DNA of 64,000 nucleotides from Candidatus Dojkabacteria bacterium (GTDB taxonomy: Bacteria > Patescibacteriota > Dojkabacteria > JAOAGR01), in contig JAOAGR010000004.1 of assembly GCA_026415655.1 (NCBI GenBank), positions 134,773-198,772 on the forward strand. The letters run 5' to 3'. The notes under the pieces were generated by a model. The model was not told where the DNA came from, searched no databases, and saw nothing but the letters and a program-made list of their open reading frames with translations. A program made the translations under genes and the position numbers. The stretch's first letter is position 1, and the number at the start of each line of letters is the position of its first letter. Below are positions 6,557 through 51,556 of the stretch, in pieces.

Positions 6557-6564
6557 GTAATAAA

Positions 6565-10480: not shown

Positions 10481-10709
10481 TCAGCGATAAACCCTCAAAA
10501 AATAGTTTACTCGGAAAGTTAGTGGCCCTCATAGTGTATGATTAGCCCATGCAATTCACAGAAAAAGAAATAGAGGAATTCAAACAAATTTATTTTGAAG
10601 AATATGGCACTACCATTACTACAATGGAGGCTATAGAAATGGCAACAAACTTAATCACTTTACTCAGAATCGTTTTAAAGATTGACGTTTAAAACGAGAA
10701 TAACTCAAA

Positions 10710-18991: not shown

Positions 18992-19016
18992 CTTACGCTA
19001 TATTTTACTTTAAAAT

Positions 19017-19439
19017 TTGTACAATAATATGAGTAAGTACTTAATAGTAGCATTTGTTATTTTAATAATCGGTTTTTCTTCATTTTTTGTGTATACTGCT
19101 GTTCGTGGAAAAAACAATAGTGAATCTCAAACTGGAAATGAAATATCTTTAGACACTTATCAAAAAGATGGAAAATTGTATGCTGATATAACCGCAACAG
19201 CTGCTGGTTTCAGTCCTAACAAATTGAATCTTAATAGTAATACAGAAATCATTTTAAGAGCCAAAAATATAAATAATTATTCATGTACAAGTGTAATTAG
19301 GATCGCTAAATTAAATATTTTGGAAAAGTTACCTTACAATGGCGAGAAAGAAATTGTTATACCACCTCAACCAGCAGGTACAAAATTGATAGCTACTTGT
19401 AGTTCAGGTGCAAATACAATTCAGATGAATTTTTATTGA
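19017..19439 (+). CDS. Small membrane-anchored hypothetical protein
   Basis: An N-terminal transmembrane helix is followed by a beta-rich extracytoplasmic domain with three Cys. Confidence 0.4.
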   Translation: MYNNMSKYLIVAFVILIIGFSSFFVYTAVRGKNNSESQTGNEISLDTYQKDGKLYADITATAAGFSPNKLNLNSNTEIILRAKNINNYSCTSVIRIAKLNILEKLPYNGEKEIVIPPQPAGTKLIATCSSGANTIQMNFY

Positions 19440-20275
19440 TTCTCTTTAAGTCTATTTAATATCTCAAATATTCTAAAATCAGTTGCTTTTACTCCATTTT
19501 TGAGCATCTTTATTTCACCTTCTGATGGTAAAAATGAAAAGTGCAGTTTTGATATAAGTTCTATCAACACTATTGGAATAGGGATTTTTATGATGAGCTT
19601 TTCTATCTCTGCTTTATCCATTAGTGCTTCAAGAGTGTAATCTACTTCTTCTGCAACTTCATAAGTTTCGTTATTAAAAATATCTTTTTCTATTATTGTT
19701 TGTATTATTTCTGTAAGTTTATCTATTTCTATTATATTAAATGTCGAATTTGTTTGTGGTATGGCTCTTATTTTCAAAATTTGTAATGACCTCAATATTT
19801 TTACAAAATCACAATTGTCTGCCCAAATAATTCCTGGTCTTAGAATAATAAAATCACATATTGAAGATCTGATAATTTTCTCAGCTTCAAATTTTGTTCG
19901 ATAATATTCGGTGATTGCTTTTTCTGTTGTGCCTAAAGCAGAGATATGTATTAATTTAATTTTGTATTTTTCACAAATTTGTACCACTTTGCGTACAAGA
20001 TTTACATGAGTATCATAAAAATAATTTCCCGACTTCTCTCGAATAATACCTATCGCGTTTATAACAATAGTACTATTTTGTAAAGCTTTTTCTAGTTGTT
20101 CTGAGTCTTGATAATTTATTTTTTTTATTTCATCTATTTCGTAGTCTATTTCTCGTTGCTTTCGGATTACTCCTCTTACTTTATAGCCTGTAGATTTAAG
20201 TTTTTTTGCCATATTACTACCAACAAAACCGTTAGCGCCTAATATTGTTATAATGTCATTTGATTTATCTATCAT
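19433..20275 (-). CDS. NAD(P)-dependent epimerase/dehydratase family (NmrA/SDR-like) protein
   Basis: Rossmann motif ITILGANGFVGSNMAKKL at the N-terminus. Confidence 0.65.
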   Translation of the reverse strand: MIDKSNDIITILGANGFVGSNMAKKLKSTGYKVRGVIRKQREIDYEIDEIKKINYQDSEQLEKALQNSTIVINAIGIIREKSGNYFYDTHVNLVRKVVQICEKYKIKLIHISALGTTEKAITEYYRTKFEAEKIIRSSICDFIILRPGIIWADNCDFVKILRSLQILKIRAIPQTNSTFNIIEIDKLTEIIQTIIEKDIFNNETYEVAEEVDYTLEALMDKAEIEKLIIKIPIPIVLIELISKLHFSFLPSEGEIKMLKNGVKATDFRIFEILNRLKENQ

Positions 20276-20302
20276 TTGATATATTATAACAAATGAAAAT
20301 AT

Positions 20303-21688
20303 ATGGAGCGTAAGTTGCGAGTTACTTTTATTTTAGTTATTTTGATAGCTTTTGTCTGTAGTGTGCTTTCACTCATGATTTTGAGACAAAGTCAAAGTGT
20401 CAATACAGTTGAAGATACGCTTGATATGTATTATCGAACCGAATCTTATTTGCAATATGTCGTAAATTATCAGATTTATGGTAATCAGATTTCTAACACC
20501 TTGAGAGATAAGCATAAAAGTCAATATTTTTTATCTTTGTTAAGATTGGGCTTAATACAAAATATAATTAATCAATTTGAGATAAGACAAATTCAAAGTT
20601 ATTTTTCGGCATATGAAAATGCCGATATTGATTATTGGCTAGATTTAATAGAGGCTACTAGAGTTAGACTAAGTCCATATCAGTTCAAAAATATAGAAGA
20701 TACACAAAAATATTTTTTTATCGCTAAGAGGCAACATATATTATCGATAGATGAGTTATTGGAATTTGTAAAATATTTTCAAAATACTCCTATTGCAAGT
20801 TATTTTGATTCTCTTATCAGATTGGCGGATGAGTACAATAATAGAAATTTTAGTGATGAAATTTTTGAACAGATTAAAAATTTAAGAATTCCAGAAGACT
20901 ATAAATTGTTAAATAACGAGATAAGAATAATGCAAGATAGTGTCGCCCAATTAAATAATCGCAACCTAACAGATGTATATATGCAAATATGGGCTTTATT
21001 TTTAAATCTTAATTATTGTTTTCTTTTAAATATTGAAGATATTGAAAATACTTTTGATCAGAGTTTTTTGAAGGATAATAATCAAAATGTTTTATGGTTT
21101 AAGGCCAGTTGTTATTATCAAAAACAAGATTATGATAAGGCGTTGGAGCTGCTTAGGAAATTGATTGATTTGGATCCTTTGCAAATAGAATATAGATATC
21201 TATATCTTGATATATTAAAGTTAATCAATGCTGATAGAGAAAATTTATTTAATGTAATAGATCAGATTTTTATGCTTAATCCTCAAGATTATGAGCTTTA
21301 TACAACAAAAATAAGTATTTTGATAAATGATAATATATATGAAGAGACAAAGAGCTATATACTCAAATTTTTAAAGAACAGTAAAATTTTGAATAAGACT
21401 AAAGAGATGGCTTTGCAAAGGATATTTTATATTGATTATGAAATAACTAGGTTTATGTGTCTTGAAAATCTGATTAAGACATATTTAGACGCCACGGAAA
21501 TCTTTTTGTGCGATTTAATGTCGGATAAAAAAAGCCGTTACAATGATGAAAAGTTAGATAGATTGTCATTGCTGATGGAACGTAAGTTATACTATTCAGA
21601 TATCGCACAGCAAACTGCCCGTGAAATTGGTAAAGAGTTTTTCATTACATATCTGAATGTTGTTCTAGAGAAATCACAAGAGATTTAA
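20303..21688 (+). CDS. Membrane-anchored TPR-like repeat protein
   Basis: An N-terminal transmembrane helix is followed by TPR-like helical repeats (QDYDKALELLRKLIDLDPLQIEYRYLYLDILKL). Confidence 0.4.
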   Translation: MERKLRVTFILVILIAFVCSVLSLMILRQSQSVNTVEDTLDMYYRTESYLQYVVNYQIYGNQISNTLRDKHKSQYFLSLLRLGLIQNIINQFEIRQIQSYFSAYENADIDYWLDLIEATRVRLSPYQFKNIEDTQKYFFIAKRQHILSIDELLEFVKYFQNTPIASYFDSLIRLADEYNNRNFSDEIFEQIKNLRIPEDYKLLNNEIRIMQDSVAQLNNRNLTDVYMQIWALFLNLNYCFLLNIEDIENTFDQSFLKDNNQNVLWFKASCYYQKQDYDKALELLRKLIDLDPLQIEYRYLYLDILKLINADRENLFNVIDQIFMLNPQDYELYTTKISILINDNIYEETKSYILKFLKNSKILNKTKEMALQRIFYIDYEITRFMCLENLIKTYLDATEIFLCDLMSDKKSRYNDEKLDRLSLLMERKLYYSDIAQQTAREIGKEFFITYLNVVLEKSQEI

Positions 21689-22301
21689 GTTCATCTAAAT
21701 CTTCTTTCCATTTGTTTTTAATAGGATCAAACCATTCAAGCCCACGAAATTGTAATTTATAAAAAGCTTTTTTGTTATGCACGCTTCCAAGGTAAATATA
21801 GTCAATCTCTGTTTTGTGGTATTCCTCTATACATTTTGTCATCATGTACATACCAAAACTAGTTTCCCAAAGTTCTTCAACATAAAAAGGATAAGCATAA
21901 TGTAATAATTTATCAGTTTTCAAACATATACAATAACCATGATTTTCATAATTTAATAATGTGTTAAATAGAAAATTTGTAGGATCTGTGAGTAACTGTT
22001 TGATGATATTGGTACTAAAAGATTCTTCTTTGTGTTTTATTGCATAAAAATCTCTAGCTATTTTGCCAATTTTCCAATCATAATTGTTTAATGGCAGGGA
22101 AATCTCTTCTATTTTGTTATTAAATTTTCGCAGAATTCTTCTATTTTCACTGGTTGGAGAATAATTTCTCAATCTAACGCGTAAACTGATTATTTTTGAT
22201 GCTATACATTTCTTGCGTGTAAGTACGTAACCATTATCATACAACTCATCAAGATCGTGATCTTTTATTTCTATATAACCAAATGATTTGTAGCTTGTCA
22301 T
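21645..22301 (-). CDS. Aminoacyl-tRNA-protein transferase (Ate/Bpt family, N-end rule)
   Basis: The C-terminal segment IDYIYLGSVHNKKAFYKLQFRGLEW matches the Bpt/ATE_C signature (YLYLGY...K..YK..FRPLE). Confidence 0.5.
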   Translation of the reverse strand: MTSYKSFGYIEIKDHDLDELYDNGYVLTRKKCIASKIISLRVRLRNYSPTSENRRILRKFNNKIEEISLPLNNYDWKIGKIARDFYAIKHKEESFSTNIIKQLLTDPTNFLFNTLLNYENHGYCICLKTDKLLHYAYPFYVEELWETSFGMYMMTKCIEEYHKTEIDYIYLGSVHNKKAFYKLQFRGLEWFDPIKNKWKEDLDELKSLVISLEQHSDM

Positions 22302-22425
22302 CGGATTATTTGGATTTTATCAGATTATAATAATTTGATTTATTGTTTCACTAATTTTATGCATTTGAATCTTTCCTATTTAACCAGATTAAATATAGAA
22401 ACAGATTATTGCGAGATTACTAAAG

Positions 22426-22453
22426 TGACCTATGGGTTAACCCATAGGTCACG
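22426..22453. repeat. Perfect 28-bp palindrome GTGACCTATGGGTTAACCCATAGGTCAC
   Basis: I checked the reverse complement directly and it is identical. The core is GGTTAACC. Confidence 0.9.
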
Positions 22454-22755
22454 AATCAATATATATTATTGTTTTATAATACAAAATTGAGATTAACGTA
22501 AATAATGTTATTGATGAATAATGAGCTACTGATAATTTGTAATTAATTGATTAATTCATCGGTAAAATATCTCGACGCTTTCTGTGTTGTGATGTAAAAA
22601 TCAATTTTTCATAAAAGATTATTGATAAACTACAAGACTTGGACAGTATGAATACTTATCTAAAAATATTTATATTTAACCACAGGATGTAGGTTTATTT
22701 AGAGGAATGTGTTAGAGTATATATTAAAGTGCGTATTAGAACTTGTATGATAGAT

Positions 22756-22779
22756 CTATGGGTTAACCCATGGGTCACA
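22756..22779. repeat. Second copy of the same palindrome family (ATCTATGGGTTAACCCATGGGTCAC, one arm mismatch)
   Basis: Direct sequence comparison with the 22426 copy. Confidence 0.85.
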
Positions 22780-22844
22780 TAATCATATTAGGAACTAATA
22801 AGTTAACATATTAGAAAATCATGAGGTAAAACTATTGGCAACCC

Positions 22845-22887
22845 ATATAGCAACCCACATAGCAACCCATAGGTTAACCTATGGGTC
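22845..22887. repeat. Three tandem roughly 12-bp iterons (CAACCCATATAG / CAACCCACATAG / CAACCCATAGG) running into the 20-bp perfect palindrome CCCATAGGTTAACCTATGGG
   Basis: Seen directly. The motif family matches the two upstream palindromes but with arm orientation swapped. It lies about 160 bp upstream of the PLD-SNF2 gene. Confidence 0.85.
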
Positions 22888-23047
22888 TTACTACTCTATA
22901 TATTTATCCTTTTATGATTTACATAATTCCCATTTTGTCTTTTTATAGTGTATTGATATATTTAAGTAGATGTGATTTTTAGCTATATAAGAAACTTATT
23001 TTTATTATAAATTTTATTGTAAAATTGAATATACCAAAATTTATTTT

Positions 23048-26000
23048 ATGGCTATACTTATCAATAAGGATGGAAAAGGTCTTGAGGAACGAATTAATGA
23101 ATTGATTTTACGGTCGGACGAGTTGAGATTTTTGGTTGGATTTTTTTATTTTTCTGGATTTCGAGAGATTTATGAAAGCATCAAGAAAAATTCACAATTA
23201 AGAGAAATAAAGGTACTTGTGGGATTAAATGTTGATGAATATAACAATGTATTAGTGGAATATGGTAAAGATTCTGAGACAATTGGCGATAACCTAAAAA
23301 GACGAGTTCAAAAGACAATTGGTCAGACCACCGAAGAAGTTATAACGGAACTTCTGAATAGCTATCGAAAGACATCTAGGCATGAGGATTGCGATACAAA
23401 AGAATTTTATGAAAGTGCGAAACTTTTTTTGGATCTGTTAAGACAATCAAAATTATTAATAAGAAAAACAAAAGAACCGAATCATTCGAAGTTATATTTG
23501 TTTCATCTAATAAATAATACTCCTCCAAATATTGCTATCTTGGGCAGTAGTAATCTGACTAAATCTGGACTCTCTGAAAATTCGGAATTGAATGTAGAAA
23601 TTAGAGATGATGATTATCTGGAAAAGTTAGTTGAGTATTTTGATGAACAATGGATAAATTCGATAGATCTAAATGGAGATGATACTAAACAGAGAATTAT
23701 TGATGTTATAGAGAATAACTCACCGATAAAATCTATTACTCCGTTTGAGGCTTATATTTATATTTTATACCTTTATTATAAAAACAACTTTGTGCATTCA
23801 GATAAAGATGATGAATTAAATAGTTTTTTAGAAAAGAAAGGATATAAACCATTCAAATTTCAATTAGATGCGGTCAATCAAGCTTGCCAGATATTGAATG
23901 AACATAATGGTGTCATATTGGCTGATGTTGTAGGTCTTGGTAAAAGTATAATTGCCTGTTTGATAGGTAAAAAAATAAAATTAAGGGGTATCGTCATAGC
24001 GCCGCCAGGACTCATCGGTGATATAGAGCTAAAAACATCAGGATGGGCAAAATATCTCAATGATTTTGAATTGTATGACTGGGAGATTTTTTCTGCTGGG
24101 AAGCTGGATCAAGCACTGGAGCGGGTCAAGAGTGAAAACTTTGACATAGTGGTGGTAGATGAAGCTCATCGGTTTAGAAATGAAAATACAGAAAGTTATA
24201 CTTATCTACAGTCTATTTGTAGAGGTAAAAAAGTTGTCTTACTCACTGCGACACCATTCAATAACAACCCGTCAGATGTTTTTTCTTATCTGAAGCTTTT
24301 TACCATACCTAAAAAGTCAACGTTGACCGCGAATGGAGATCTTGAGTCAGAATTTCGAGAGATGGAAGATAAGTATCAAAAATTTACGCGTATTTTGAAG
24401 GGTAAGGATAAAGATAAAGATAAAGATAAAGATAAATCGCTAGAAATTTATAAGAAATTATTTCAAGGGGAGAGATATATAGATAATGAAAAATTGAAAA
24501 ATGAATTAAAAAATATATCAATGCGTATAAAGGGAATAATTCAAAAGGTATTGATACGCAGAAATAGAATAGATCTAAAAAATAATCCCTATTATAAAGA
24601 TGAAATCAAGGAATTACCTGTTGTCCATTCACCAAGAGAATGTTTTTTTACTTTGAATAAGGAATTGGATGGTTTTTATGATGATGTACTAAAAGAATAC
24701 TTCGCGGAAGATGGAGTCTTTAAGGGAGCGGTATATAGACCTGATAGATATAAAAAAAAGTATCAGAGCCAAAAACTTATTGAAAATACGACCAACGATC
24801 CCGTATCAGAGATAGCACCTCAGTATAACCTCTATGACTTTATGCGTAGGTTACTTGTGAAAAGATTTGAAAGTTCACTTTTTGCGTTTTACAGAAGCTT
24901 AGAAAATTTTATTAATTTTTATCAAAAGTGTCTTGATTCTATCAACAAAACAAATAGATTTATCTATAACCGTAGCGTGATCGAAGACATTTTGAGAATG
25001 GATATAGATAGTATTGATGAGACTGAACTTAATGAGCGATTGACAAAGATATTGGAGGAAAATGGCGTAGATAAAGAGGACATATATCCCATTGAAAATA
25101 TGCAGGATAGCTTTATTGACGACATAACTAGTGATATTCGACTTTTGGTAGATGTCAAGGATCGACTGGATAAATTGGCAGTGATGGGGAATAATGATCC
25201 AAAAATTTTCGCCCTAAGAGAAAATCTTGATAAAATTTTGAAGCAAGGGGAAAAAGCAATCATCTTTACTGAGTTTGTGGATACTGTCAAATATCTTGCT
25301 GAGAACTTAAATGGTTATAGGATATTTGCAGTGACTGAGAAACCTACAAGACATATATATCAGCAGATCCTTGAGAATTTTGACGCATCGTATCCAAAAG
25401 ATAGGCAGATAAGTGATTTTGATATATTGATTGTTACGGATCGTTTTTCTGAGGGATACAATCTGAATCGTGCTAATCATGTGTTTAATTTTGACATTCC
25501 GTGGAATCCTGTACGTGTTATACAGAGGTTAGGTAGGATCAACCGTATCGGTACTACGCCATATAAAAATCTTTATATATATAATTTTTTTCCAACAACC
25601 AGAGGTGAAGAACAGATAAATCTAAGAAGAACAGCTGAAACGAAGATGTTTATGATACATCGGTGTTTAGTCGAAGATGCAAAGATCTTTTCGGAAGAAG
25701 AGGAACCTACGCCATCCGAGCTTTATAAGAGATTAAATCAAAACCCGGAGGAGTTGGGTGAAGAAGAGTCATTACTTACTAAAGTATCTAAAATCTTGAA
25801 TAGTCATAAAGATGTACAGAGAAAGGTCGAGGATCTACCGCGTTATATCAAGGTTGCTAAGAAATATACGGAAAATAATCTAGTACTAACTGTACAAAGG
25901 GCAAACGGTCTTTACTTTTTTATCAATAACAAAGAACATCCTGTCTCATTGGATGAGGTAATAAAATATATCGAATGTGATCCGGACGAACCTAGATACG

Positions 26001-26428
26001 AATTATCAAATGATTTTTGGACCAATTATCAAAACCTGAAAGACTCGTACCAGAAGTATGCGCATAATCGGTCAGATAAAAGGGATACTAGCACAAGGGG
26101 GGCATTGTCTGATAAAGAAAGAGCAATAAATGTACTCAGGGAGATAATTTCAAAAAACCCCAACTGGTTAGATGAAGATCTCCGAAATTTTCTGGAAAAT
26201 ATTTTGGAGGATCTGATAGAGTACTCGACACTACCCAAAAGGATTGTAAATAGGATCGCTTCTATTAAGCCAAGTAAATTAGCCCATGACAAAAATGCAA
26301 TGTTAAAGATTTTTGAAGAGATCCGTCGTTTTATCAGTCTGGATTATTTTGCGAATGTGATCGAAAGATCCAAACAGACAAAAAGTGAAATTATAATTTG
26401 TATAGAAAATCAGTACCATGGAGGATAA
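23048..26428 (+). CDS. Fusion protein: N-terminal PLD-family (HKD) nuclease domain plus SNF2-family helicase. It resembles DISARM DrmC and DrmD combined
   Basis: The HKD motif is HSKLYLFHLINNTPPNIAILGSSNLTKSG (HxK...GSxN). SNF2 motif I is ILADVVGLGKSIIA and motif II is VVVDEAHRFRN. The helicase C-terminal domain motif VI reads QRLGRINRIGT. The protein is 1126 aa. An in-frame (GATAAA)n microsatellite encodes KDKDKDKDKDK at 24404-24436. Confidence 0.8.
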   Translation: MAILINKDGKGLEERINELILRSDELRFLVGFFYFSGFREIYESIKKNSQLREIKVLVGLNVDEYNNVLVEYGKDSETIGDNLKRRVQKTIGQTTEEVITELLNSYRKTSRHEDCDTKEFYESAKLFLDLLRQSKLLIRKTKEPNHSKLYLFHLINNTPPNIAILGSSNLTKSGLSENSELNVEIRDDDYLEKLVEYFDEQWINSIDLNGDDTKQRIIDVIENNSPIKSITPFEAYIYILYLYYKNNFVHSDKDDELNSFLEKKGYKPFKFQLDAVNQACQILNEHNGVILADVVGLGKSIIACLIGKKIKLRGIVIAPPGLIGDIELKTSGWAKYLNDFELYDWEIFSAGKLDQALERVKSENFDIVVVDEAHRFRNENTESYTYLQSICRGKKVVLLTATPFNNNPSDVFSYLKLFTIPKKSTLTANGDLESEFREMEDKYQKFTRILKGKDKDKDKDKDKSLEIYKKLFQGERYIDNEKLKNELKNISMRIKGIIQKVLIRRNRIDLKNNPYYKDEIKELPVVHSPRECFFTLNKELDGFYDDVLKEYFAEDGVFKGAVYRPDRYKKKYQSQKLIENTTNDPVSEIAPQYNLYDFMRRLLVKRFESSLFAFYRSLENFINFYQKCLDSINKTNRFIYNRSVIEDILRMDIDSIDETELNERLTKILEENGVDKEDIYPIENMQDSFIDDITSDIRLLVDVKDRLDKLAVMGNNDPKIFALRENLDKILKQGEKAIIFTEFVDTVKYLAENLNGYRIFAVTEKPTRHIYQQILENFDASYPKDRQISDFDILIVTDRFSEGYNLNRANHVFNFDIPWNPVRVIQRLGRINRIGTTPYKNLYIYNFFPTTRGEEQINLRRTAETKMFMIHRCLVEDAKIFSEEEEPTPSELYKRLNQNPEELGEEESLLTKVSKILNSHKDVQRKVEDLPRYIKVAKKYTENNLVLTVQRANGLYFFINNKEHPVSLDEVIKYIECDPDEPRYELSNDFWTNYQNLKDSYQKYAHNRSDKRDTSTRGALSDKERAINVLREIISKNPNWLDEDLRNFLENILEDLIEYSTLPKRIVNRIASIKPSKLAHDKNAMLKIFEEIRRFISLDYFANVIERSKQTKSEIIICIENQYHGG

Positions 26429-27122
26429 AAACCAACAAATATTAGAAAATTTTATACATGCTAAGAGTTTTTATGATATTTCCAGGTCATTTATTGATTT
26501 TATTACTGGGAAGACTTCTAATTTTGTTGATTGTAAAAATGAAATAGAAGTATTTGGATATAAGGTCTATCAAATAGGATCAATAGAAGTGGGCAGAAAT
26601 GAGTATATACCGATATTTATTATTGAATTAAGAGAACTAAGCGAAAGAACATCAAGAAAACATCAGTTTGAATTGGGAAAAACAATATTGCGTGGAGAAT
26701 ACTTGTATATAGCTGGTATATTTATATTTTATGATAAAAACGGCAATAAAAGAATAAGTTATATAGAAAAGATATATAAAGATGGTAAGGAACTTTATAC
26801 AACATTTAAGAGATATACCTTCTTCATAAGTGAAAGCCAGACTAATAAAACCTTTCTAAGGCAATTTGCCAGTGGTGATTTTACTAAACAAAAAAGTATA
26901 AGGGAAATCTTTAGTGTAGAAAAAGTAACAAAACAATTTTATCAAGAGATTTCAAGCTGGTATTTTTGGGCACTGAGTCATGTGCGTTTTACAGATGATG
27001 CAGAGAATGAAAAAAATGGCCGCGAGATAGGGATCATTCGTTTTATAACTAGAATAATCTTTGTTTGGTTCATGCGTGAAAAAGGCCTTGTACCAAAGGA
27101 TTTATTTGATTTTAACAAGTAG
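26418..27122 (+). CDS. N-terminal segment of a PglX/DrmMI/MmeI-family adenine methyltransferase, ended by an in-frame TAG
   Basis: It ends in ...IIRFITRIIFVWFMREKGLVPKDLFDFNK*. The downstream ORF is in the same frame and continues the conserved N-terminal region (QNVLKTLDDNESTYYRAILQNLFFATLNTP). The start overlaps the stop of the PLD-SNF2 gene. Confidence 0.6.
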   Translation: MEDKNQQILENFIHAKSFYDISRSFIDFITGKTSNFVDCKNEIEVFGYKVYQIGSIEVGRNEYIPIFIIELRELSERTSRKHQFELGKTILRGEYLYIAGIFIFYDKNGNKRISYIEKIYKDGKELYTTFKRYTFFISESQTNKTFLRQFASGDFTKQKSIREIFSVEKVTKQFYQEISSWYFWALSHVRFTDDAENEKNGREIGIIRFITRIIFVWFMREKGLVPKDLFDFNK

Positions 27123-27140
27123 CAAAATGTATTAAAGACA

Positions 27141-30100
27141 TTGGACGACAATGAAAGTACTTATTATAGGGCTATTTTGCAAAATCTATTTTTTGCGACA
27201 CTAAATACACCTATATCTGAAAGAAAGTTTAGAAAAGAGGAAAGTTTTCATGGGGTAAACGAGCATTACATGAATCATACGTATTTTAGATTTCATGATT
27301 ATTTCAAAAATCCTGATGATATGTTGAACCTGTTTGGGAATATACCTTTTTTGAACGGTGGACTTTTTGAGTGCCTGGATAAAAGGGCAGATGATCCTGA
27401 TAATTACACAGGCAAAGAGATAAGAATAGATGGCTTTTCTGATGTCAAAAGTAAGCAGGTGACATTTCCTAATATTTTGTTCTTTTCTGATGAGGTGACG
27501 GTAGGTCTTGATGAGTTTTTTCCGGATTCGAAAGATAAAAAGAGATATAACGGTGTAAAAATACGAGGACTGATCAATATATTATCTTCATACAAATTTA
27601 CTATTGATGAGAATACTTTGAATGATGAAGAGGTGGCATTGGATCCTGAGCTTTTGGGAAATATCTTTGAGAACCTACTTGCGGCTTATAACCCTGAGAC
27701 TGCTGCAACAGCTCGCAAGGCTACAGGTAGTTATTATACGCCACGAGTTATTGTAGACTACATGGTTACAGAATCTCTGAAAGAATATCTTACCACGCAA
27801 TTTTCTCAACATTATGGGATAGATCAAATGGAAGATTTTAAAGAGAAATTAGAAACACTATTTTCAAGTGAGCATGAAGAAAATCCATTTGATGAGGGAA
27901 TAACCGATTTTTTAATACAAAAAATCAACAAGATAAAAATCATAGATCCTGCCGTGGGTTCCGGAGCTTTTCCGATGGGTATGTTGCACAAGCTGGTTTT
28001 TTTACTGAGTAAATTGGACCCCCATAATGAAAGATGGAAAAGAGAACAGATAGCAATAGTTGAGAAAATAACAGACCCTAAACTAAGACAGAAAATTATT
28101 CAAAAGATTGAGGAGAATTTTCAGCATAATGAACTCGACTATGGGCGAAAATTATATCTAATACAGAATTGCCTTTATGGCGTGGACATTCAGCCCATTG
28201 CTATTCAGATTGCTAAGCTGAGATTTTTTATTTCGTTACTGGTGGATGAAAAATCAAATAACAATAAAGATGAAAACTTTGGCATAGAACCCCTGCCAAA
28301 TCTGGAAACTAAATTGGTAGCGGCTAATACTTTGGTTGCATTACCACAGGAACCCTATCAATGTCTTAAAATGGACGAAATAATTCGTTTAGAAAAAGAT
28401 TTGTTTGAGGTGAGAAATAGTTATTTTACTGCTAATACTCAGAAAGAAAAAAGTAAAATCCAAAAAGAGGATAGAGAGATACGAAATAAATTGAAAAAAC
28501 TCATTGAGGACTATGTGAGCGATAACAAAAACGAATTAAATAAATTGCAAAATGAATTGGAGCAATTACCTGTAAGACTAGAATATGTAGAAGAACGTAC
28601 GCTATTGGAAACTAAAAAAGTCAAAAAAGATGTAAATGAGGAAAAAAGAAACGCACTGATGAATAAAATTAGGGATTTAGAAAACAAAATAAAGGCTGAT
28701 GAGATACTTTTGGAAAGATATAGAAAAGTTGCTGAATACAATATTTTTAATCCTCATATCTCGGAGGTTTGGTTTGATCCTGAGTGGATGTTTGGGGTTG
28801 AGGTAGGTGATGACAAGATTGTTAACAAAGATAAAGATGTATTTGCTTACCATATTACATGGTCAACACATAATAGTAGACGAAAAGAAGATTATGAGCC
28901 GTCAAATACCGAAGGTTATGCACCGGTTTTGTTAAGTTGTGAGGAAAGAAAATATGTTACTAAAATATTAGCCCAAAGAATAGTAAATAAACGATATCGA
29001 GTGCTAGCTCTAAATGTATTAGATGACCATGTACATTTGTTACTAGTTTGTGGGGAAAATGAAATTACAAAAATAGTTGGAGACTTGAAAGGATTTAGTT
29101 CGTATGCCATGTCTCATCTCAACGCAGACGAGGTGCAGAATAGAGAGATGAATTATGGGATCAAAATGACTCAAGGGTTAACTCTTAAGTCATTATCTAA
29201 ATCTGAACGAAAACAAGATTTCGTGACTCTGACTCGTGGGGTAACTTCAGAGTCAATACACGCAACTCCCAAGTCACTAAATGTAATTCCTGAGTCGATA
29301 TGTAATTCCAAATCTGGCGAGTATATTGGGACTGTGACTGAGGGGTTAACCTCAGAGTCAATACACGCGACTCCCAAGTCGCTAAATATAATTCCTGAGT
29401 CGATATGTAATTCCAAATCTGGCGAGTGTATTGGGACTGTGACTGAGGGGTTAACCCCTCAGTCAACAAGCCAATCTTCTCAGTCAACAAGCCAATCTCC
29501 TCAGTCAACAAGCCAATCTCCCCAGTCAACAAGCCAATCTCCTCAGTCAACAAACCAATCTCCTCAGTCAATAAACCAACCTCTCCAGTCAATAAACCAA
29601 TCTCCTTATTCAACAAACCAACCTTCTCAGTCATTAGATCCAACACCTCAGTCATCAGATCTGAATCCTCATTCTAATCGGATATCAATTAATCATTCAT
29701 TTGAAGCTGAAGATATGTACTGTTCAAGTATGCCAGCATACAATGATGGTACAATTTCCAAACTTTGGGCACGTAAATTTGGAAAGGCATTAATTCGTAG
29801 TGAGAAGCATATTGTCAATGCTATCGAATATATCCAAAACAATCATTTGAAGCATAATTTGCCTGAAGTTGATCCTGCGTTATATGAATATGCTCTTACT
29901 TCTTTTGATGATGCATTTAAGAATTTTGTTGTTTCGAAAGGATTTGATATTGTGATTGGAAATCCTCCGTATGTGCAATTACAAAAGGCTTATGACAGCA
30001 GAAATAAATATGCTGATCTCTACAAGAATCAAAATTTTGAAACTTTTGATAGAACCGGAGATTTGTATTGTTTGTTTTATGAAAAAGGAATCCAACTACT

Positions 30101-31142
30101 AAGACAATCAGGCCTCTTGTGTTATATCACTTCGAATAAATGGATGCGTGCAGGATATGGTGAAAAGTTAAGAAATTTCTTTACACAGTATAATCCAAGA
30201 ATTTTGATAGACCTGGGACCTAATGTTTTTGAAAATGCAACGGTTGATACAAATATTTTAATCATCCGAAAAGAACAAAACAAGAATGAGCTTAAAGCAG
30301 TAACAATTAGTGAATCAAAAAAAGATGGGATTGATTTTGCCGATATTTTACAAAAACAAGGCGTTACCGTAACTAAATTAAAACAAGATGCCTGGTTTAT
30401 AGGCAGTGATGCAGAACAAAGCCTGAAAGAAAAAATAGAACGCATCGGCAAACCACTAAAAGATTGGGATGTAAAAATTTATCGTGGAATATTAACTGGC
30501 TTAAACGAAGCCTTTATCATTGACAGTAAAAAGCGAGAAGAGATTCTTGCCAATTGTAGAGATGAAGATGAACGCCGACGCACCGAAGCTATCATAAAAC
30601 CAATTTTGCGTGGCAGGGACATCAAACGGTATTACTACGAGTGGGCGGGGCTGTGGGTGATAATTGCAAAATTTGGCTTCTACAAAGAAGCTCATTTATA
30701 CCCTGCTATAATCAATCATTTATCAAAATACGAGACTCAATTAAAACAAAGAGGGCAATGTCAATATACAAGACAAGGAGCAAAACTAAAAAATCCCGAC
30801 TTTCTCGGACAACATCATTGGCTTGAATTAGATAATAACCCACAAGATTCTTATTTAACTGAGTTTGAGAAGGAGAAGGTGGTGGGGCAAAGAATAACAC
30901 AAGAACCTACGTTTTGTTTAGTTGAACCAAATATCTTAATTCTTGATAGTATGGCATTTTTTACGGGTGAAAATTTAATGTATATTATGGCTATTCTTAA
31001 TTCAAAACTGATTTATAATTATGTAGAAATGATAGTTCATCAGTATGGTTATACAGGTTTTAGATTATCAAATCAGTATGTTGAAATGATGCCCCTTCCC
31101 CCCCATCACTCCATCCAATCAGTCCATAGTAAATCAGATTGA
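27141..31142 (+). CDS. Gamma-class N6-adenine DNA methyltransferase of the PglX/DrmMI/MmeI (Eco57I-like) family, carrying a roughly 570-aa in-frame insertion. The true C-terminus continues to 31305 after a C7 frameshift
   Basis: The NGGLFE motif is present. Motif X is ATGSYYTPRVIVDYMV and motif I is IIDPAVGSGAFPMGML, followed by YGVDIQPIAIQIAKLRF. About 670 aa later comes motif IV, FDIVIGNPPYVQ, then motifs V-VIII (DLYCLFYEKG...LLCYITSNKWM...FENATVDTNILIIRK). The family C-terminal tail IDELVYKLYELTDEEIRQVEERI is encoded at 31144-31305, in the +1 frame past a C7 run at 31098-31104. Confidence 0.8.
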   Translation: MDDNESTYYRAILQNLFFATLNTPISERKFRKEESFHGVNEHYMNHTYFRFHDYFKNPDDMLNLFGNIPFLNGGLFECLDKRADDPDNYTGKEIRIDGFSDVKSKQVTFPNILFFSDEVTVGLDEFFPDSKDKKRYNGVKIRGLINILSSYKFTIDENTLNDEEVALDPELLGNIFENLLAAYNPETAATARKATGSYYTPRVIVDYMVTESLKEYLTTQFSQHYGIDQMEDFKEKLETLFSSEHEENPFDEGITDFLIQKINKIKIIDPAVGSGAFPMGMLHKLVFLLSKLDPHNERWKREQIAIVEKITDPKLRQKIIQKIEENFQHNELDYGRKLYLIQNCLYGVDIQPIAIQIAKLRFFISLLVDEKSNNNKDENFGIEPLPNLETKLVAANTLVALPQEPYQCLKMDEIIRLEKDLFEVRNSYFTANTQKEKSKIQKEDREIRNKLKKLIEDYVSDNKNELNKLQNELEQLPVRLEYVEERTLLETKKVKKDVNEEKRNALMNKIRDLENKIKADEILLERYRKVAEYNIFNPHISEVWFDPEWMFGVEVGDDKIVNKDKDVFAYHITWSTHNSRRKEDYEPSNTEGYAPVLLSCEERKYVTKILAQRIVNKRYRVLALNVLDDHVHLLLVCGENEITKIVGDLKGFSSYAMSHLNADEVQNREMNYGIKMTQGLTLKSLSKSERKQDFVTLTRGVTSESIHATPKSLNVIPESICNSKSGEYIGTVTEGLTSESIHATPKSLNIIPESICNSKSGECIGTVTEGLTPQSTSQSSQSTSQSPQSTSQSPQSTSQSPQSTNQSPQSINQPLQSINQSPYSTNQPSQSLDPTPQSSDLNPHSNRISINHSFEAEDMYCSSMPAYNDGTISKLWARKFGKALIRSEKHIVNAIEYIQNNHLKHNLPEVDPALYEYALTSFDDAFKNFVVSKGFDIVIGNPPYVQLQKAYDSRNKYADLYKNQNFETFDRTGDLYCLFYEKGIQLLRQSGLLCYITSNKWMRAGYGEKLRNFFTQYNPRILIDLGPNVFENATVDTNILIIRKEQNKNELKAVTISESKKDGIDFADILQKQGVTVTKLKQDAWFIGSDAEQSLKEKIERIGKPLKDWDVKIYRGILTGLNEAFIIDSKKREEILANCRDEDERRRTEAIIKPILRGRDIKRYYYEWAGLWVIIAKFGFYKEAHLYPAIINHLSKYETQLKQRGQCQYTRQGAKLKNPDFLGQHHWLELDNNPQDSYLTEFEKEKVVGQRITQEPTFCLVEPNILILDSMAFFTGENLMYIMAILNSKLIYNYVEMIVHQYGYTGFRLSNQYVEMMPLPPHHSIQSVHSKSD
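29223..29438. repeat. Two tandem roughly 105/111-bp direct repeats inside the methyltransferase ORF, each starting with a GGGGTTAAC(C) palindromic element
   Basis: The unit encodes TLTRGVTSESIHATPKSLNVIPESICNSKSGEYIGTV twice. A perfect 24-bp palindrome GACTGAGGGGTTAACCCCTCAGTC sits at 29438-29461, and an imperfect copy is at 29169-29190. Confidence 0.85.
29460..29669. repeat. About 10 tandem 21-bp repeats (CAGTCAACAAGCCAATCTCCT and variants) encoding (P)QSTSQS heptads
   Basis: Seen directly. The repeat is in frame (21 nt = 7 codons) and produces long spurious ORFs on the opposite strand. Confidence 0.85.
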
Positions 31143-31386
31143 GCAATTAGTGGATAAAATCCTTGAAGCAAAACGTAGTGATAAAAACGCAGATACAAGT
31201 CATTGGGAGCATAAGATCGATGAATTGGTGTATAAGTTGTATGAATTAACAGATGAGGAAATAAGGCAGGTAGAGGAGAGAATAGACAAAAATAGAGTTA
31301 ATTAGGTATAAGCGGTTTTTATCTGTTAGACATTTATCGTAATATCAAGTTATAAATTTCTCAGGATTTGATGATTTTTATATTGG

Positions 31387-32835
31387 CTATGCTGCCCTTC
31401 TCATTGCTGCTTTTATACCTTTTCTCAGTTCATGATTATATTCTAGTCTCTGACAAGACAAGGTTATTTGGGATATTAGATGATCTATATCTGCATCTTT
31501 TATATTCTCTCCGTCTTTTATTTTCTTTAATATGTCGGGTGGTATATTTACGGTAACAAGTATCGGTACAGTACTTCCTCTAAGAGTACGTAAAAACTCT
31601 CTGTTTTCTAATAAAGTTCTTAATCTTGTTTTAGGTCTTGTTGTTTGGGTATTGGTTTCATCTTTTGAAACTTCAGAAAATATATTCCTTATAGAACTTC
31701 TGCGGTTTGGGTCCGTTTCTTGAGTATTATTATCTTTACTTTTTGATGAGATGTTACTAGCGGTTTGATTATCTTGATTTTTTAACGAAATGCTGTCAGC
31801 GGTCTGATTATCCTTAGTTTCTGATGAAACGTTATCAGCGGTTGTAACAGGACCGTTCGAATCAGAGATTTTATTATCTTTGCTTTCTGATGAACTTTTA
31901 CCTTTTTCTGTTTGAATAACAAAAAATTCAAACACTGCAAAAAGAGTGTGTGCTATATCTCGTATGTCTTCTTGATCAATTTCTATACTTCCATAATTGG
32001 GATTATCAACATTAGGCGCATCTAAAGTATTTTCTTGATCTTTAGGTGGCGTTTGATTGTTCTTTTCATCATATTTTGTTTTTATTTCAATTACAGTTAA
32101 TTTGACTTTGCTTTTTGCCATCAAATCAAATAGTCTTAATATATCTGAATCAATTCCTGCGGCTGATAGGATATTTTTTCGTATTTTTTTACTCAATTCT
32201 AAGATAAACTCTTTCGTTTCTTCATCTTTTGTGTCATAAGAAAAACCTATCAAGTCAGCTCTTGTGGTCAGAGCGGCTATTGCCCTATGTGTAGGTATTC
32301 CTGTATCTGTTTTTGCATTATCATTGTCATTTGGTACATGTGTAAATGGAAAATATAATCCTATTAATTGAATTAGTTCATCATATTGTTTTTGTATATC
32401 TGGATTTTCCAATTCTATTTTATTTACTTGTTGTCCTGTACCAATTTGTTCAAGGTGTTGCAGTATTTTGCGATAATTGGTAGATACACTTTTTATATAT
32501 TTCTTGACTTTTTCTTCTATACTGTGGTCAATCATCAGTGAAAGTTCATGTAACCAGATCGTTGTAGTTTCTGATTCTTCTTGTGCATCATTTGCTAATC
32601 CTGGTTCGGAATCGGGTCCTACTTGTCTTGATGGATCCTTTATTCTTGGGACCATCTCTGTAGTTGTATTGTAGATTTCGGCGGCTAGTTTTCGTAATCT
32701 ATCTAAAACTTTTTCTGATAATTTTGATTGTGTAGATCTAATATGTTCGATGAAATGGGGACAGGTTGAGAAATTTTTGTTTCCAACTTCATGATCTCCG
32801 TTTTGTATAAATTCGTGTTGTATAATACGTCCCAC
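31387..32835 (-). CDS. Hypothetical protein, 482 aa, with an internal low-complexity Ser/Asp/Asn/Thr/Lys-rich tract. It is convergent with the methyltransferase
   Basis: Long ORF in an AT-rich genome. The repeated SKDN(Q)TA(D/S)SIS-like segment is visible, and I recognise no catalytic motif. Confidence 0.5.
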   Translation of the reverse strand: MGRIIQHEFIQNGDHEVGNKNFSTCPHFIEHIRSTQSKLSEKVLDRLRKLAAEIYNTTTEMVPRIKDPSRQVGPDSEPGLANDAQEESETTTIWLHELSLMIDHSIEEKVKKYIKSVSTNYRKILQHLEQIGTGQQVNKIELENPDIQKQYDELIQLIGLYFPFTHVPNDNDNAKTDTGIPTHRAIAALTTRADLIGFSYDTKDEETKEFILELSKKIRKNILSAAGIDSDILRLFDLMAKSKVKLTVIEIKTKYDEKNNQTPPKDQENTLDAPNVDNPNYGSIEIDQEDIRDIAHTLFAVFEFFVIQTEKGKSSSESKDNKISDSNGPVTTADNVSSETKDNQTADSISLKNQDNQTASNISSKSKDNNTQETDPNRRSSIRNIFSEVSKDETNTQTTRPKTRLRTLLENREFLRTLRGSTVPILVTVNIPPDILKKIKDGENIKDADIDHLISQITLSCQRLEYNHELRKGIKAAMRRAA

Positions 32836-32981
32836 TAATGTGCCAAAATATAACGGCCATAACGCAAATGGATATTTTTCTCGTGAGGGAAATTCGGGAT
32901 TACCGGTATTATCAGGTGTTTTTGTGACTGATCAGCGAAAACTTACAGGATAAGGTTGCATAAAAAGTAAAACTGTCCTAT

Positions 32982-33055
32982 TGGCTGGATCGCCTGGATT
33001 CGAACCAGGAAAACCTCCTCCAAAGGGAGGCGTGATACCGTTTCACCACGATCCA
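32982..33055 (-). tRNA. tRNA-Gln (anticodon UUG)
   Basis: It folds into a cloverleaf with acceptor stem U1-A72 plus GGATCG/CGATCC and discriminator G73, both typical Gln identity elements. CCA is encoded. The anticodon loop is CUUUGGA and the T-arm is CCTGG-TTCGAAT-CCAGG. The 3' end faces the defence island. Confidence 0.8.
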
Positions 33056-47939: not shown

Positions 47940-49337
47940 TTGTTATTATTTTTGATAATAATTCATGATATATTTGAATATACATTAATGAACTTTGTAA
48001 AGAATCAAAATCAGCCTATTAGTGTTGTGTATATTGATAAAAAAAGAAAGAATAGTTCTGTATTAAAGTATCTCTTTCTAATATTCACAATAGGTGTTTT
48101 AGTATCCAGCGTTTTGATTTTTATTTTCTTTATTTTTAATGATAAAAATTTTGATTTTGATGCTAAAGTTTTAACTAAAAATTTCAATTTATTTGGTGAA
48201 CAAAAAGAGGAAAACACCCCAAACAATAATGTACAGGATCGAAAGTATAATGAATATACTCTTAGTAGATTTAGTAATGAGGAGATAGATAGATTGGGTA
48301 TTTTAGATATACCAATAGGTTTCTCTGTACAATATGAATATAAAGGTATAAAATTTGTCAGAACACCAAGAAAATCCTTCACTTATCAGCAAATTGGGCT
48401 TTTGAAGTATTTCATAGACATGACACCAGCAAAATTATTAAATCCGGGACCGGCAGCTATCATTACTTTTGATAAGGGAGAAATTAGTCCTAGACATAAT
48501 TTGTCTCAAGATACTATTGCTTTTGCTAGTGGTATGTATATGTTTTTTAATGATATCTCATTCAATTCCATTAAAAATGATCATTTTGTGGATAATGCTT
48601 TTGCAACTTTTGTTCATGAACTTATGCATATTTCTCAATTTAACTACGTTTTTGATGAGTTCGGTTATGAGGATGCATTGAAATTAGTTGAAAAAAAAGG
48701 TTATTCTTGGGTTGATTTAGTTTCTGAGTCTGCTTTGACAAGAAGTTTTGCTGAATCTACAGAGTGGGAGTATGATCCACAAAGGGGGTATTTTCTTAAT
48801 TCTAAGGAAAATGTTTTGACCACAGACTATGGAAAAACCTCAATTTATGAAGACATCGCTGATACAGTGGCGGCTGTAGTTACAACTCGTTTTGATCTGA
48901 TCTCAGAAAATCGAATTATTTGGACGCTCAATTATTTGCAAGAAAATTCAGACAGTATAAAAATGAAAAAGTTACCAGTATTTCCAAATTCAAAATTAGT
49001 AAATCTGGAGGGGGCAAATTTTATTGATACTATTAAACAAGAATACAATAGCAAATATGATTATGTTAGTGTGTCAACTTTTTATTATGATAAAGAGAAA
49101 TCAATAAATGATGTTGTGAGTTTTTTTGAAAACGAATTTAATGATAGATACTGGACAGTAATCAAGCCACTTTATAAAACTAATACAAACAGTGTAATAA
49201 CATATGAGGGTGAATTTAGTACTGGAGTAAGAAATTCATATATCAGAATTTATACTTATGATTATGTGGGAACAGGGTATAATATTAGTTTGAAGGGTAC
49301 TGTTGTTGTATTTATTTGCGGTTTTAAGTTTAACTAA
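47940..49337 (+). CDS. Membrane-anchored hypothetical protein with an HExxH motif (putative Zn metallopeptidase)
   Basis: An N-terminal transmembrane helix and the motif FVHELMHISQF. Confidence 0.4.
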   Translation: MLLFLIIIHDIFEYTLMNFVKNQNQPISVVYIDKKRKNSSVLKYLFLIFTIGVLVSSVLIFIFFIFNDKNFDFDAKVLTKNFNLFGEQKEENTPNNNVQDRKYNEYTLSRFSNEEIDRLGILDIPIGFSVQYEYKGIKFVRTPRKSFTYQQIGLLKYFIDMTPAKLLNPGPAAIITFDKGEISPRHNLSQDTIAFASGMYMFFNDISFNSIKNDHFVDNAFATFVHELMHISQFNYVFDEFGYEDALKLVEKKGYSWVDLVSESALTRSFAESTEWEYDPQRGYFLNSKENVLTTDYGKTSIYEDIADTVAAVVTTRFDLISENRIIWTLNYLQENSDSIKMKKLPVFPNSKLVNLEGANFIDTIKQEYNSKYDYVSVSTFYYDKEKSINDVVSFFENEFNDRYWTVIKPLYKTNTNSVITYEGEFSTGVRNSYIRIYTYDYVGTGYNISLKGTVVVFICGFKFN

Positions 49338-49514: not shown

Positions 49515-51031
<1,517 letters not shown>

Positions 51032-51457: not shown

Positions 51458-51534
51458 GGGCGTATAGCTCAGCTGGTTAGAGCGCAGTCCTGATAAGACT
51501 GAGGTCCCTTGTTCGAGTCAAGGTACGCCCACCA
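51458..51534 (+). tRNA. tRNA-Ile (anticodon GAU)
   Basis: GGGCGTATAGCTCAGCTGGTTAGAGCGCAGTCCTGATAAGACTGAGGTCCCTTGTTCGAGTCAAGGTACGCCCACCA. CCA is encoded. It lies in the 16S spacer. Confidence 0.9.
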
Positions 51535-51556
51535 TAAATTTGATTTATATCAAAAC

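Follow-up and report, generated by a model that had tools for sequence, protein, structure and literature searches.

A probably decaying two-gene HKD-SNF2/methyltransferase locus in a Candidatus Dojkabacteria genome and the Y1 transposase-like domain nested within it

Introduction

What kind of system is encoded where the gene for a fused nuclease and helicase overlaps the gene for a very large DNA methyltransferase, and the remaining components of class 1 DISARM are missing? This question is raised by a locus of a Candidatus Dojkabacteria bacterium (assembly GCA_026415655.1, contig JAOAGR010000004.1), which we analysed within a window of 64,000 nt (the whole stretch of DNA examined; all positions are numbered from its start). 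The region studied, 22302-33055, contains a gene fusing phospholipase D (PLD) and SNF2 domains, a methyltransferase gene and a gene of no known family, lying between an AT-rich leader and a tRNA-Gln gene. The initial annotation, made from the sequence without database searches, described a DISARM-like island with a giant PglX/DrmMI-family methyltransferase that could not be placed in a described family. Here we find that the locus is a probably decaying copy of a widespread two-gene restriction-modification (R-M)-like system, consisting of a nuclease-motor protein and a DNA methyltransferase, and that a nested Y1-plus-hairpin element accounts both for the giant size of the methyltransferase and for the palindromes of the leader. 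Modules of this type were anticipated in 2009, and the pairing was remarked on in 2023; the family itself has no name.

Results

A single-HKD domain fused to a SNF2 motor

The first gene of the pair (23048..26428, + strand) encodes a protein of 1126 aa that we regard as a restriction (R)-like subunit, and its Pfam matches (PLDc_2, SNF2-rel_dom, Helicase_C) bear out the fusion of PLD and SNF2 functions in one polypeptide. A single HKD (PLD-family) nuclease domain, RE_NgoFVII-like, occupies the N-terminal part (PLDc_2, aa 63-202) with HKD residues H146, K148 and GSSN 166-169, and is followed by a motor with Walker A K299, DEAH at 371-374 and motif VI at Q826-R833, after which comes a conserved C-terminal region. 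The residues H146, K148 and G166-S167-S168-N169, together with K299, DEAH and motif VI, were invariant in an alignment of 18 homologues, and the HxK motif with a downstream GSxN that characterizes PLD/HKD nucleases was found across the family. Because Pfam finds just one PLDc_2 domain per protein, we infer that the nuclease works as a dimer.

The best PADLOC match of the helicase was the 'HKD+Snf2' model (2.4e-40, aa 11-882), which was derived in a survey of the accessory genes of type III CRISPR systems. More than 5600 homologues exist, with full-length relatives at ~42% identity in many phyla and a cluster member 100% identical to the window protein (P0001), and for neither this protein nor the methyltransferase did sequence searches of the PDB turn up a close relative of solved structure. 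The family also occurs on plasmids, an Allomeiothermus plasmid homologue having a different methyltransferase context. Among phage sequences, phrog_26785 (function not known) matches the HKD-SNF2 protein over nearly its full length (2.4e-111), and the INPHARED collection yielded one partial helicase match only. We note that a 6-bp repeat (TAAAGA x5.7, 24403-24436) encodes KDKDKDKDKDK within an insertion in the SNF2 N-lobe.

The methyltransferase gene and its lesions

The ATG of the second gene (26418..31305, + strand) lies at 26418, 11 nt inside the PLD-SNF2 gene, and this 11-nt overlap confirms the overlapping stop and start through which the two genes had been proposed to be translationally coupled. 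All of the motifs listed initially were located (NGGLFE at 27354, YYTP at 27732, DPAVGSGAFP at 27945 and GFDIVIGNPPY at 29940), and Pfam matches to Eco57I (1.7e-35), N6_Mtase (1.1e-11) and TaqI_C (3.6e-9) agree with a modification/specificity (M/S) subunit of the Eco57I/MmeI family, in which a gamma-class N6-adenine methyltransferase (motif I DPxxGSG, motif IV NPPY) precedes a C-terminal target recognition domain (TRD) of the TaqI_C type. The N-domain has a restriction endonuclease (REase)-like fold that resembles the REase domains of DrdV and BpuSI. Across 25-60 methyltransferase homologues we found no conserved D...(D/E)xK-type residues in aa 1-140 and no invariant acidic or Lys residue, and this domain has no Pfam nuclease match; on these alignments the REase-like N-domain is predicted to be inactivated.

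The single intact reading frame of ~1600 aa that had been described with these motifs does not exist in this copy. The frame is divided into open reading frames (ORFs) at 26418..27122 (234 aa) and 27141..31142 (1333 aa), which lie in the same frame and are separated by an in-frame TAG at codon 235 (27120-27122, + strand), and the three matches of a family hidden Markov model (HMM), at 26406-27119, 27123-31139 and 31090-31302, are collinear, with the third in a different frame. The C-terminal tail is lost because of a +1 frameshift in a C7 homopolymer (31098-31104, + strand), and removal of one C brings the conserved tail back, reading ...IVNQIEQLVDKIL...LVYKLYELTDEEI... up to a stop codon at 31303-31305. 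The poly-G of C. jejuni Cj0031 is a phase-variation tract, and the C7 run, which sits in a gene of 33% GC, could be a candidate tract of that sort or an assembly error.

At 27121 a near-identical Logan contig (L004, 99.75% over 16.2 kb) reads T, so that the codon is TTG (Leu), and Leu is also encoded at this codon in L005, a syntenic contig from a metagenome-assembled genome (MAG) with ~71% protein identity in the helicase that we used for alignments. Because L004 carries TTG, the nonsense codon is a recent point mutation that is polymorphic in the population, or an error, and not recoding; read-through of the TAG and an alternative genetic code were thereby ruled out. The lesions are reversed in L005, where the methyltransferase is intact (1234 aa, insert-free) and the HKD-SNF2 gene is broken, an in-frame stop and a frameshift splitting it into ORFs of 323, 584 and 161 aa (L005 10001-13353). 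It looks as if the locus is decaying in both lineages, unless the lesions are assembly errors, and in the genome studied here the system is probably off or decaying. As to size, insert-free homologues are mostly 1150-1250 aa long, and 380 of the 1628 aa of the repaired window protein belong to an inserted Y1 transposase-like domain with tandem repeats; the 'giant' methyltransferase thus owes its size to an in-frame insert, in a gene that is itself broken by a nonsense codon and a frameshift.

Conservation of the gene pair

We surveyed 82 loci, comprising 80 from one-genome-per-species contigs, a Bacteroidia MAG and Fervidobacterium. A methyltransferase gene of this family on the same strand, at most three genes away from the PLD-SNF2 gene, was present at 69/82 loci in many phyla, lying directly downstream in 32, downstream with one gene between in 19 and upstream in some. 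The 13 unpaired loci are truncated contigs, none of which (0/13) extends for at least 3.5 kb on both sides, and the overlap or adjacency of the two genes was also seen in the Bacteroidia MAG and Fervidobacterium. No third gene recurs with the pair, the largest neighbour cluster reaching 6/82 loci. The genes found between the two core genes (42 in the 82 loci) include Schlafen-AlbA/HATPase_c_4, DUF1016/YhcG, DUF559, Fic, RhuM, DarT/Macro and AbiEii, which are guest cassettes typical of Type I and R-M operons; DUF1998, DrmA-like, DUF499, DUF3780 and PglZ were absent from these 42.

Within the window, Pfam scans of the ORFs flanking the pair and of the others of at least 450 aa, leaving out one of 465 aa (47940..49337), likewise gave no match to DUF1998/DrmA-like, DUF499, DUF3780, PglZ or BrxC, which confirms for the scanned ORFs that the locus lacks a DUF1998 or DrmA-like gene, as annotated. 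The pairing of PLD-SNF2 and methyltransferase genes seen in the window is therefore conserved elsewhere, the loci without it being truncated, and the neighbourhoods of homologues do not regularly include DrmA or DrmB. Because the two-gene state is conserved and DrmA and DrmB do not recur, we conclude that the two genes form a conserved unit and do not represent an eroded DISARM.

Such a unit has antecedents in the literature, contrary to the view that it fits no described family. A Type I-like nature was proposed (Morgan 2009, PMC2731913) for MmeI homologues without the PD-ExK motif, which are encoded beside a helicase and show no endonuclease activity alone in vitro, and the juxtaposition of a predicted nuclease-less MmeI-like methyltransferase and a helicase gene is what we find at the 69 paired loci, the other 13 being truncated. 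A coding sequence with phospholipase D and SNF domains has been listed beside such methyltransferases (PMC9881135), and HKD-Swi2/Snf2 proteins have been described as restriction effectors (PMC12839542).

Proposed mechanism

Type ISP enzymes such as LlaGI and LlaBIII unite in one polypeptide an Mrr/PD-(D/E)xK nuclease, a superfamily 2 (SF2) translocase, a gamma-class N6-adenine methyltransferase and a TRD, and they translocate from an asymmetric site and cleave on collision. The functional parts of the window pair are alike, and probably the logic as well, the differences being that they are distributed over two polypeptides and that the nuclease is of the HKD type. We consider it likely that the core is a translationally coupled, ATP-dependent two-gene R-M-like operon of the Type I/Type ISP kind. 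Taking the domain content, the conserved pairing, the lesions, the insert and the hairpins as observed, we propose a mechanism whose elements of complex formation, translocation, collision-dependent cleavage and a role in defence are all predicted from the protein sequences. The product of the second gene, in which a putatively dead REase-like N-fold is followed by a helical spacer, the gamma-class N6-adenine methyltransferase and the TaqI_C-type TRD, would recognise an asymmetric site and methylate it as a mark of self. The HKD-SNF2 subunit would dock on the methyltransferase, probably on its dead REase-like domain, and the motor would translocate double-stranded DNA with ATP from unmethylated sites. 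PLD-family active sites are built from two HKD motifs (Nuc, BfiI); because each HKD-SNF2 protein has one such motif, and thus half an active site, cutting should need two motor subunits to meet, as in the collision-dependent Type ISP and Type III enzymes. Restriction would depend on the M/S subunit, such that loss of the methyltransferase need not be lethal, and this dependence would explain how an intact nuclease-motor gene can persist beside a broken methyltransferase gene.

Alternative explanations

The components of class 1 DISARM (a SNF2 helicase, a PLD nuclease and an N6-adenine methyltransferase, with distantly homologous domains) overlap with those of the locus, which might then be a remnant that lost DrmA and DrmB and retained a DrmD-DrmC fusion with DrmMI. 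DrmD models do match the helicase C-lobe (PADLOC 1.2e-28; NCBIfam 1e-36) and DrmMI matches the methyltransferase (PADLOC 1.1e-23), but the NCBIfam DrmD match (NF038317) covers aa 592-936 only and scores 126.7 bits against a cut-off of 610, a second model (NF038318) scores 72.5 against 950, and the DrmMI match, confined to partial stretches, is ~110 orders of magnitude weaker than that to Type IIG (REase_MTase_IIG, 5.5e-136). Class 1 DISARM also differs in having DrmA and DrmB/DUF1998 and in keeping PLD and SNF2 on separate proteins. With DUF1998 and DrmA in neither the scanned window ORFs nor the recurring or intervening genes of the 82 loci, and with the two-gene state being the rule across phyla and not a local loss, erosion of a DISARM system is very improbable. 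Of the assignment to a DISARM-like PglX/DrmMI family, what stands is the Eco57I/MmeI-type N6-adenine methyltransferase; membership of DrmMI or PglX does not, Type IIG being the best match, PglX reaching 1e-19 in PADLOC and 72.1 bits against a cut-off of 500 in NCBIfam (NF033452), and the PglX structure 8C45 in the PDB matching only at E 1.9e-4. The score thus falls short of the PglX equivalog level, and neither PglZ nor BrxC, which mark BREX, is among the scanned window ORFs. ARMADA II, which requires a YprA-DUF1998 protein, was ruled out. A minimal member of the BREX-related (BR) type-2 (Hma-like) systems in which the DUF499 ATPase and DUF3780 were lost or never present would account for the helicase, as the helicases of BR type-2 systems have exactly this architecture, an N-terminal HKD endoDNase with Swi2/Snf2, act as the restriction effector and are paired with an N6-methyltransferase (Rakesh & Krishnan 2026, PMC12839542), and PADLOC matches to HmaA (3.7e-22) and BrxHI/BrxHII (1.1e-27) point the same way. 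However, the HmaA match is limited to the helicase C-lobe, and BR systems are defined by DUF499, an AAA+ ATPase, with DUF3780 in 98% of type-2 loci (PMC12839542); we found neither in the scanned window ORFs or inside the homologous loci, nor any large recurring neighbour family, and we regard this derivation as unlikely.

We also judge it unlikely that the methyltransferase acts alone, cutting through an N-terminal nuclease of its own as a Type IIG/IIL enzyme of the MmeI/DrdV type, with PLD-SNF2 as a separate or accessory gene for defence. In PADLOC the methyltransferase protein is indeed matched best by REase_MTase_IIG, it shares the methyltransferase and TRD of this class (MmeI, DrdV, BpuSI, Eco57I, Cj0031) and its N-domain folds like those of DrdV and BpuSI. 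Set against this, the alignments predict no catalytic PD-ExK nuclease in aa 1-140, nuclease-less MmeI homologues had no endonuclease activity in vitro (PMC2731913), and the family differs from Type IIG/IIL in its near-universal HKD-SNF2 partner gene, same-strand and often overlapping. A non-defensive epigenetic module, in which the methyltransferase would be a regulatory writer of N6-methyladenine (m6A), the role suggested for DnmA of B. subtilis, and the partner helicase-nuclease would be inactive or serve another role, gains from the fact that one or other partner is broken in both syntenic genomes, and from DnmA-YeeB-YeeC, which did not restrict transforming plasmid DNA and whose m6A affected promoter activity (PMC7261158). 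We nevertheless give it little credence, given that distant phyla share invariant catalytic residues in the HKD and ATPase domains, that the loci attract guest defence and toxin cassettes, that Type I R-M and OLD/UvrD (Gabija-like) genes lie nearby in the window and that Eco57I-type genes are enriched for specificity-switching inversions (PMC9881135). As for the origin of the locus, tRNA-Gln(ttg), at 32982..33055 (- strand), does mark the module edge as annotated, and serves here as a boundary marker only. A recently integrated island targeting its 3' end would agree with the module abutting the 3' side of the tRNA, with its slightly higher GC (0.33-0.38 against 0.26-0.30 in the flanks, weak evidence alone) and with the plasmid-borne relatives of the helicase. 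Yet an integrase is lacking, searches for repeats of the tRNA 3' end found none of at least 12 nt in 19001-24000 and, for its last 30 nt, none of at least 13 nt window-wide, and L005 shares the flanking genes, a 484-aa gene and tRNA-Gln in identical order. Since L005, at ~71% protein identity, keeps this order, the locus predates the divergence of the two lineages, and the island that had been suggested at tRNA-Gln finds no att-like repeat to sustain it and is improbable.

Several points weigh against the R-M-like interpretation that we prefer. The HKD motif here consists of HxK and GSSN without an obvious Asp, and the REase-like N-domain of the methyltransferase could remain active through unconventional residues. 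Errors in the MAG assembly could account for the TAG and for the C7 frameshift. The window copy is disrupted, so its activity cannot be inferred from this genome. The nearest studied analogue, B. subtilis DnmA-YeeB-YeeC, methylates GACGAG and showed no restriction in transformation assays (Nye 2020, PMC7261158). DnmA (YeeA) and its partners resemble the window pair in the MmeI/Eco57I methyltransferase-TRD with a predicted non-catalytic N-domain, in taking motor and nuclease from neighbouring genes and in a restriction predicted to depend on the methyltransferase subunit, but they form a three-gene set in which the YeeB helicase and the YeeC GIY-YIG nuclease are separate, whereas the window fuses HKD/PLD with Swi2/Snf2 in a two-gene set.

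A Y1 domain nested in the methyltransferase

The insert that enlarges the methyltransferase spans 28800-29939 (+ strand) and comprises 380 in-frame codons of a RAYT-like Y1/HUH transposase domain, which we call family A, as indicated by Pfam and NCBIfam matches and by alignment to an empty site. In the alignment with L005 it replaces KNE of the empty site WFDPEWMFGV|KNE|FDIVIGNPPY, immediately ahead of motif IV (NPPY), and the target site is not duplicated. The Pfam Y1_Tnp model scores 27 bits (cut-off 23), and of the NCBIfam models REP_Tyr_transpos is best at 48.8 (cut-off 80), with transpos_IS200 at 33.8 (cut-off 55), such that the insert lies below the curated RAYT and IS200 equivalog scores. 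The HUH motif is at 29028-29036 and the catalytic Tyr at 29829-29831, and among 33 sequences of the insert family the HUH histidines H77/H79, Y344 and N348 are invariant and D76 nearly so. The confident parts of its AlphaFold model match the TnpA proteins of ISDra2, IS608 and IS200 with a Foldseek probability of 1.00. The insert thus has the HUH motif, catalytic Tyr and Y1 fold of RAYT and IS200-IS605 proteins and, like these, it is associated with a palindromic hairpin comparable to repetitive extragenic palindromic (REP) elements. It differs from them in not being free-standing but nested in frame in the catalytic domain of a methyltransferase, in carrying its presumed cognate hairpin within its own coding sequence, in a disordered loop, and in scoring below the NCBIfam RAYT cut-off.

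This low-complexity loop (29121-29745, + strand; GC 41.6%), which contains hairpin copies and tandem repeats, places ~200 residues between the HUH strand and the Tyr helix and is predicted to be disordered, the predicted local distance difference test (pLDDT) score being <50 at insert residues 126-317. Its tandem repeats (105 bp x2.2 at 29225-29456 and 21 bp x8.4 at 29457-29633) all have units that are multiples of 3. An insertion sequence (IS)-type insertion with non-coding ends was ruled out, as the Y1 fold begins and ends ~10-25 residues from the host motifs and a target-site duplication is lacking.

Nested Y1 domains were found in 11/120 of the best methyltransferase matches, where they form two families, and a DUF559 nuclease was found in 1/120. 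The family A inserts (window, P0132, P0181, P0188, P0191) share a constant site before GFDIVIGNPPY and a variable low-complexity loop at a constant point. Their hosts are polyphyletic, with closer relatives that are insert-free (window-L005, 72%; P0132-P0173, 85%; P0181-P0126, 85%), and each family A host contig that was fetched carries an HKD-SNF2 gene. The family B inserts (P0152, P0172, P0194, P0215, P0240) are typical RAYTs that occupy two other sites of the methyltransferase, with direct peptide repeats at either end. In P0234 (L095 5881-9984) one of these family B sites contains a DUF559/Vsr-like nuclease, with a repeat of ~29 aa on both sides; L095 has a Y1 gene after the methyltransferase and no HKD-SNF2 gene adjacent to it.

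Family A also has free-standing relatives of 140-230 aa, which carry transposase or RayT annotations and occur in other genomes, among them those of Candidate Phyla Radiation (CPR) bacteria. An exhaustive search with a family A profile returned 186 cluster representatives at E <= 1e-30, and 61 of the best 150 representatives are at least 350 aa long. All ten long representatives that were scanned (from the range P0284-P0428) are Eco57I/MmeI-type methyltransferases of various architectures with the Y1 domain between the motif-I part and the NPPY part, and NPPY follows 109-249 residues after HUH in 36 of the 46 long representatives with a recognisable HUH.

A hairpin family shared by the leader and the insert

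The leader upstream of the PLD-SNF2 gene (22302..23047), which separates it from a divergent 218-aa gene, proved to be 746 bp long with a GC content of 25.6% (31.5% for the window) and to contain REP-like hairpins and iterons, namely three copies of a 26-28-nt palindrome and three 12-bp iterons, in agreement with the ~750-bp AT-rich, palindrome-rich leader annotated initially. Copy 1 (GTGACCTATGGGTTAACCCATAGGTCAC, 22425-22452) is a perfect 28-nt palindrome, also supported by covariation in the family, copy 2 (GATCTATGGGTTAACCCATGGGTCAC) lies at 22753-22778, and the three iterons (GCAACCCATATA) run into copy 3 (GCAACCCATAGGTTAACCTATGGGTC) at 22838-22889, from the left arm of which they derive. 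The only member of this hairpin family outside the leader in the 64-kb window is the perfect palindrome TGACTGAGGGGTTAACCCCTCAGTCA in the loop of the insert (29440-29465, + strand), which has degenerate copies upstream and from whose right arm the 21-bp repeats of the insert derive. The core motif of the hairpin has 4 matches in the window where 0.19 are expected, and 0/100 shuffles reached 4. The L005 leader holds at least four further copies with compensatory stem changes, and over 12 copies both sides change in 6/12 stem pairs, giving 24 cells against 7.5 in shuffles (0/500 reached this number), although the copies were picked as palindromes and the percentage paired is therefore by construction. 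Scans of the leader and the 3' region for promoters and terminators gave no excess over shuffles.

The same association recurs in other family A hosts. A perfect palindrome, GCAACCCACGGGTTAACCCGTGGGTTGC, lies in the loop DNA of L085 and L086, two of the three host contigs fetched, and is the motif of a copy in the window leader; the loop of L086 also has arm-derived iterons of 12, 15 or 21 bp, and the loop of the third contig, L087, has matching arms in degenerate form only, with no palindrome detected. The palindrome GCAACCCAYRGGTTAACCYRTGGGTTGC is found in the coding loops of family A inserts in unrelated hosts (L085 6765-6794, L086 3242-3281, L088, L089 and L093) and in the window leader at 22838-22889, again with arm-derived iterons of 12, 15 or 21 bp. 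The number of iterons varies between close relatives (L085 and L088). Taken together, one hairpin family appears in both leader and insert, as would be expected of the cognate palindromic repeats of a Y1 transposase (REP or left-end/right-end hairpins).

A metagenome scan for the hairpin returned six places, 5/6 of them in loops of family A inserts. In the sixth (L090 1153-1177) the hairpin is read in frame as the peptide ATHGLTRG within a secreted protein that is unrelated, and what appears from the sequence to be a C-terminal sorting domain follows closely; this in-frame copy suggests that the hairpin is able to move on its own. We also observed in L085 a free-standing 198-aa RAYT (10135-10731) two genes downstream of the methyltransferase, with a different 32-bp palindrome, TAGAGGCACGTTGCAACGTGCCTCTA, directly after its HUH motif, and a second copy of TAGAGGCACGTTGCAACGTGCCTCTA upstream of the HKD-SNF2 gene at L085 172-211.

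It is possible, and we put it forward tentatively, that this Y1 subfamily makes in-frame, site-specific 'homing' insertions upstream of NPPY in Eco57I/MmeI genes, carrying its own hairpin and shedding copies nearby, here into the leader. The rationale would be that the methyltransferase of an R-M system is a safe harbour, where disruptive deletion is counter-selected. Alternatively, the Y1 domain may have been exapted as a single-stranded DNA-nicking or hairpin-binding module of these methyltransferases. The polyphyly, retained catalytic residues, cognate hairpins and minority distribution of family A favour mobility. No specific description of RAYT/Y1 domains nested in methyltransferases was found in the searchable literature; the closest analogy is the in-frame homing insertion of ShiLan in a phage methylase (PMC11855218).

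Neighbouring genes

The gene between the methyltransferase and tRNA-Gln (31387..32835, - strand) encodes a protein of 482 aa that, as annotated, belongs to no known family, having no match in Pfam, PADLOC, NCBIfam or PHROG. Its sole relative among the 82 loci is the 484-aa gene in the syntenic position of L005 (49% identity), and it is a lineage-specific neighbour and not part of the conserved module. A 39-bp tandem repeat in this gene (x2.9, 73% matches, 31729-31843) encodes a serine- and aspartate-rich low-complexity stretch.

A second defence cluster occupies 677-10480 of the window, with Type I hsdR (677-3760) and hsdM (3757-5382), a 393-aa ORF (5375-6556) that takes the place of hsdS by position only, and two overlapping genes, for an OLD-family ATPase-TOPRIM protein (6565-8370) and a UvrD-like helicase (8357-10480), which together look like a Gabija-like pair. 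Towards the other end, a 16S rRNA gene is followed by tRNA-Ile and tRNA-Ala (49515-51632), after which GC drops to 0.26-0.29; no 23S rRNA gene was found in the remaining 12 kb of the window, and the rRNA genes appear unlinked.

Discussion

The interest of this locus is twofold, lying in a minimal HKD-SNF2/methyltransferase system and in the Y1-plus-hairpin element nested within it. The pair of an HKD-SNF2 gene and an Eco57I-type methyltransferase gene is very common, with thousands of homologues in many bacterial phyla and on plasmids, and the defence finders in present use give it a score only by way of generic or distant models. Defining it cleanly (two genes, without DrmAB and without DUF499, with a predicted dead REase-like docking domain and a single-HKD motor) offers experimenters a minimal ATP-dependent R-M system for reconstitution. 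The nested Y1 domain with its intragenic hairpin suggests a previously undescribed lifestyle of HUH transposases. If true, methyltransferase genes would harbour a DNA-level equivalent of inteins and homing endonucleases, and odd annotations of 'giant' methyltransferases, together with their low-complexity repeats, would be explained.

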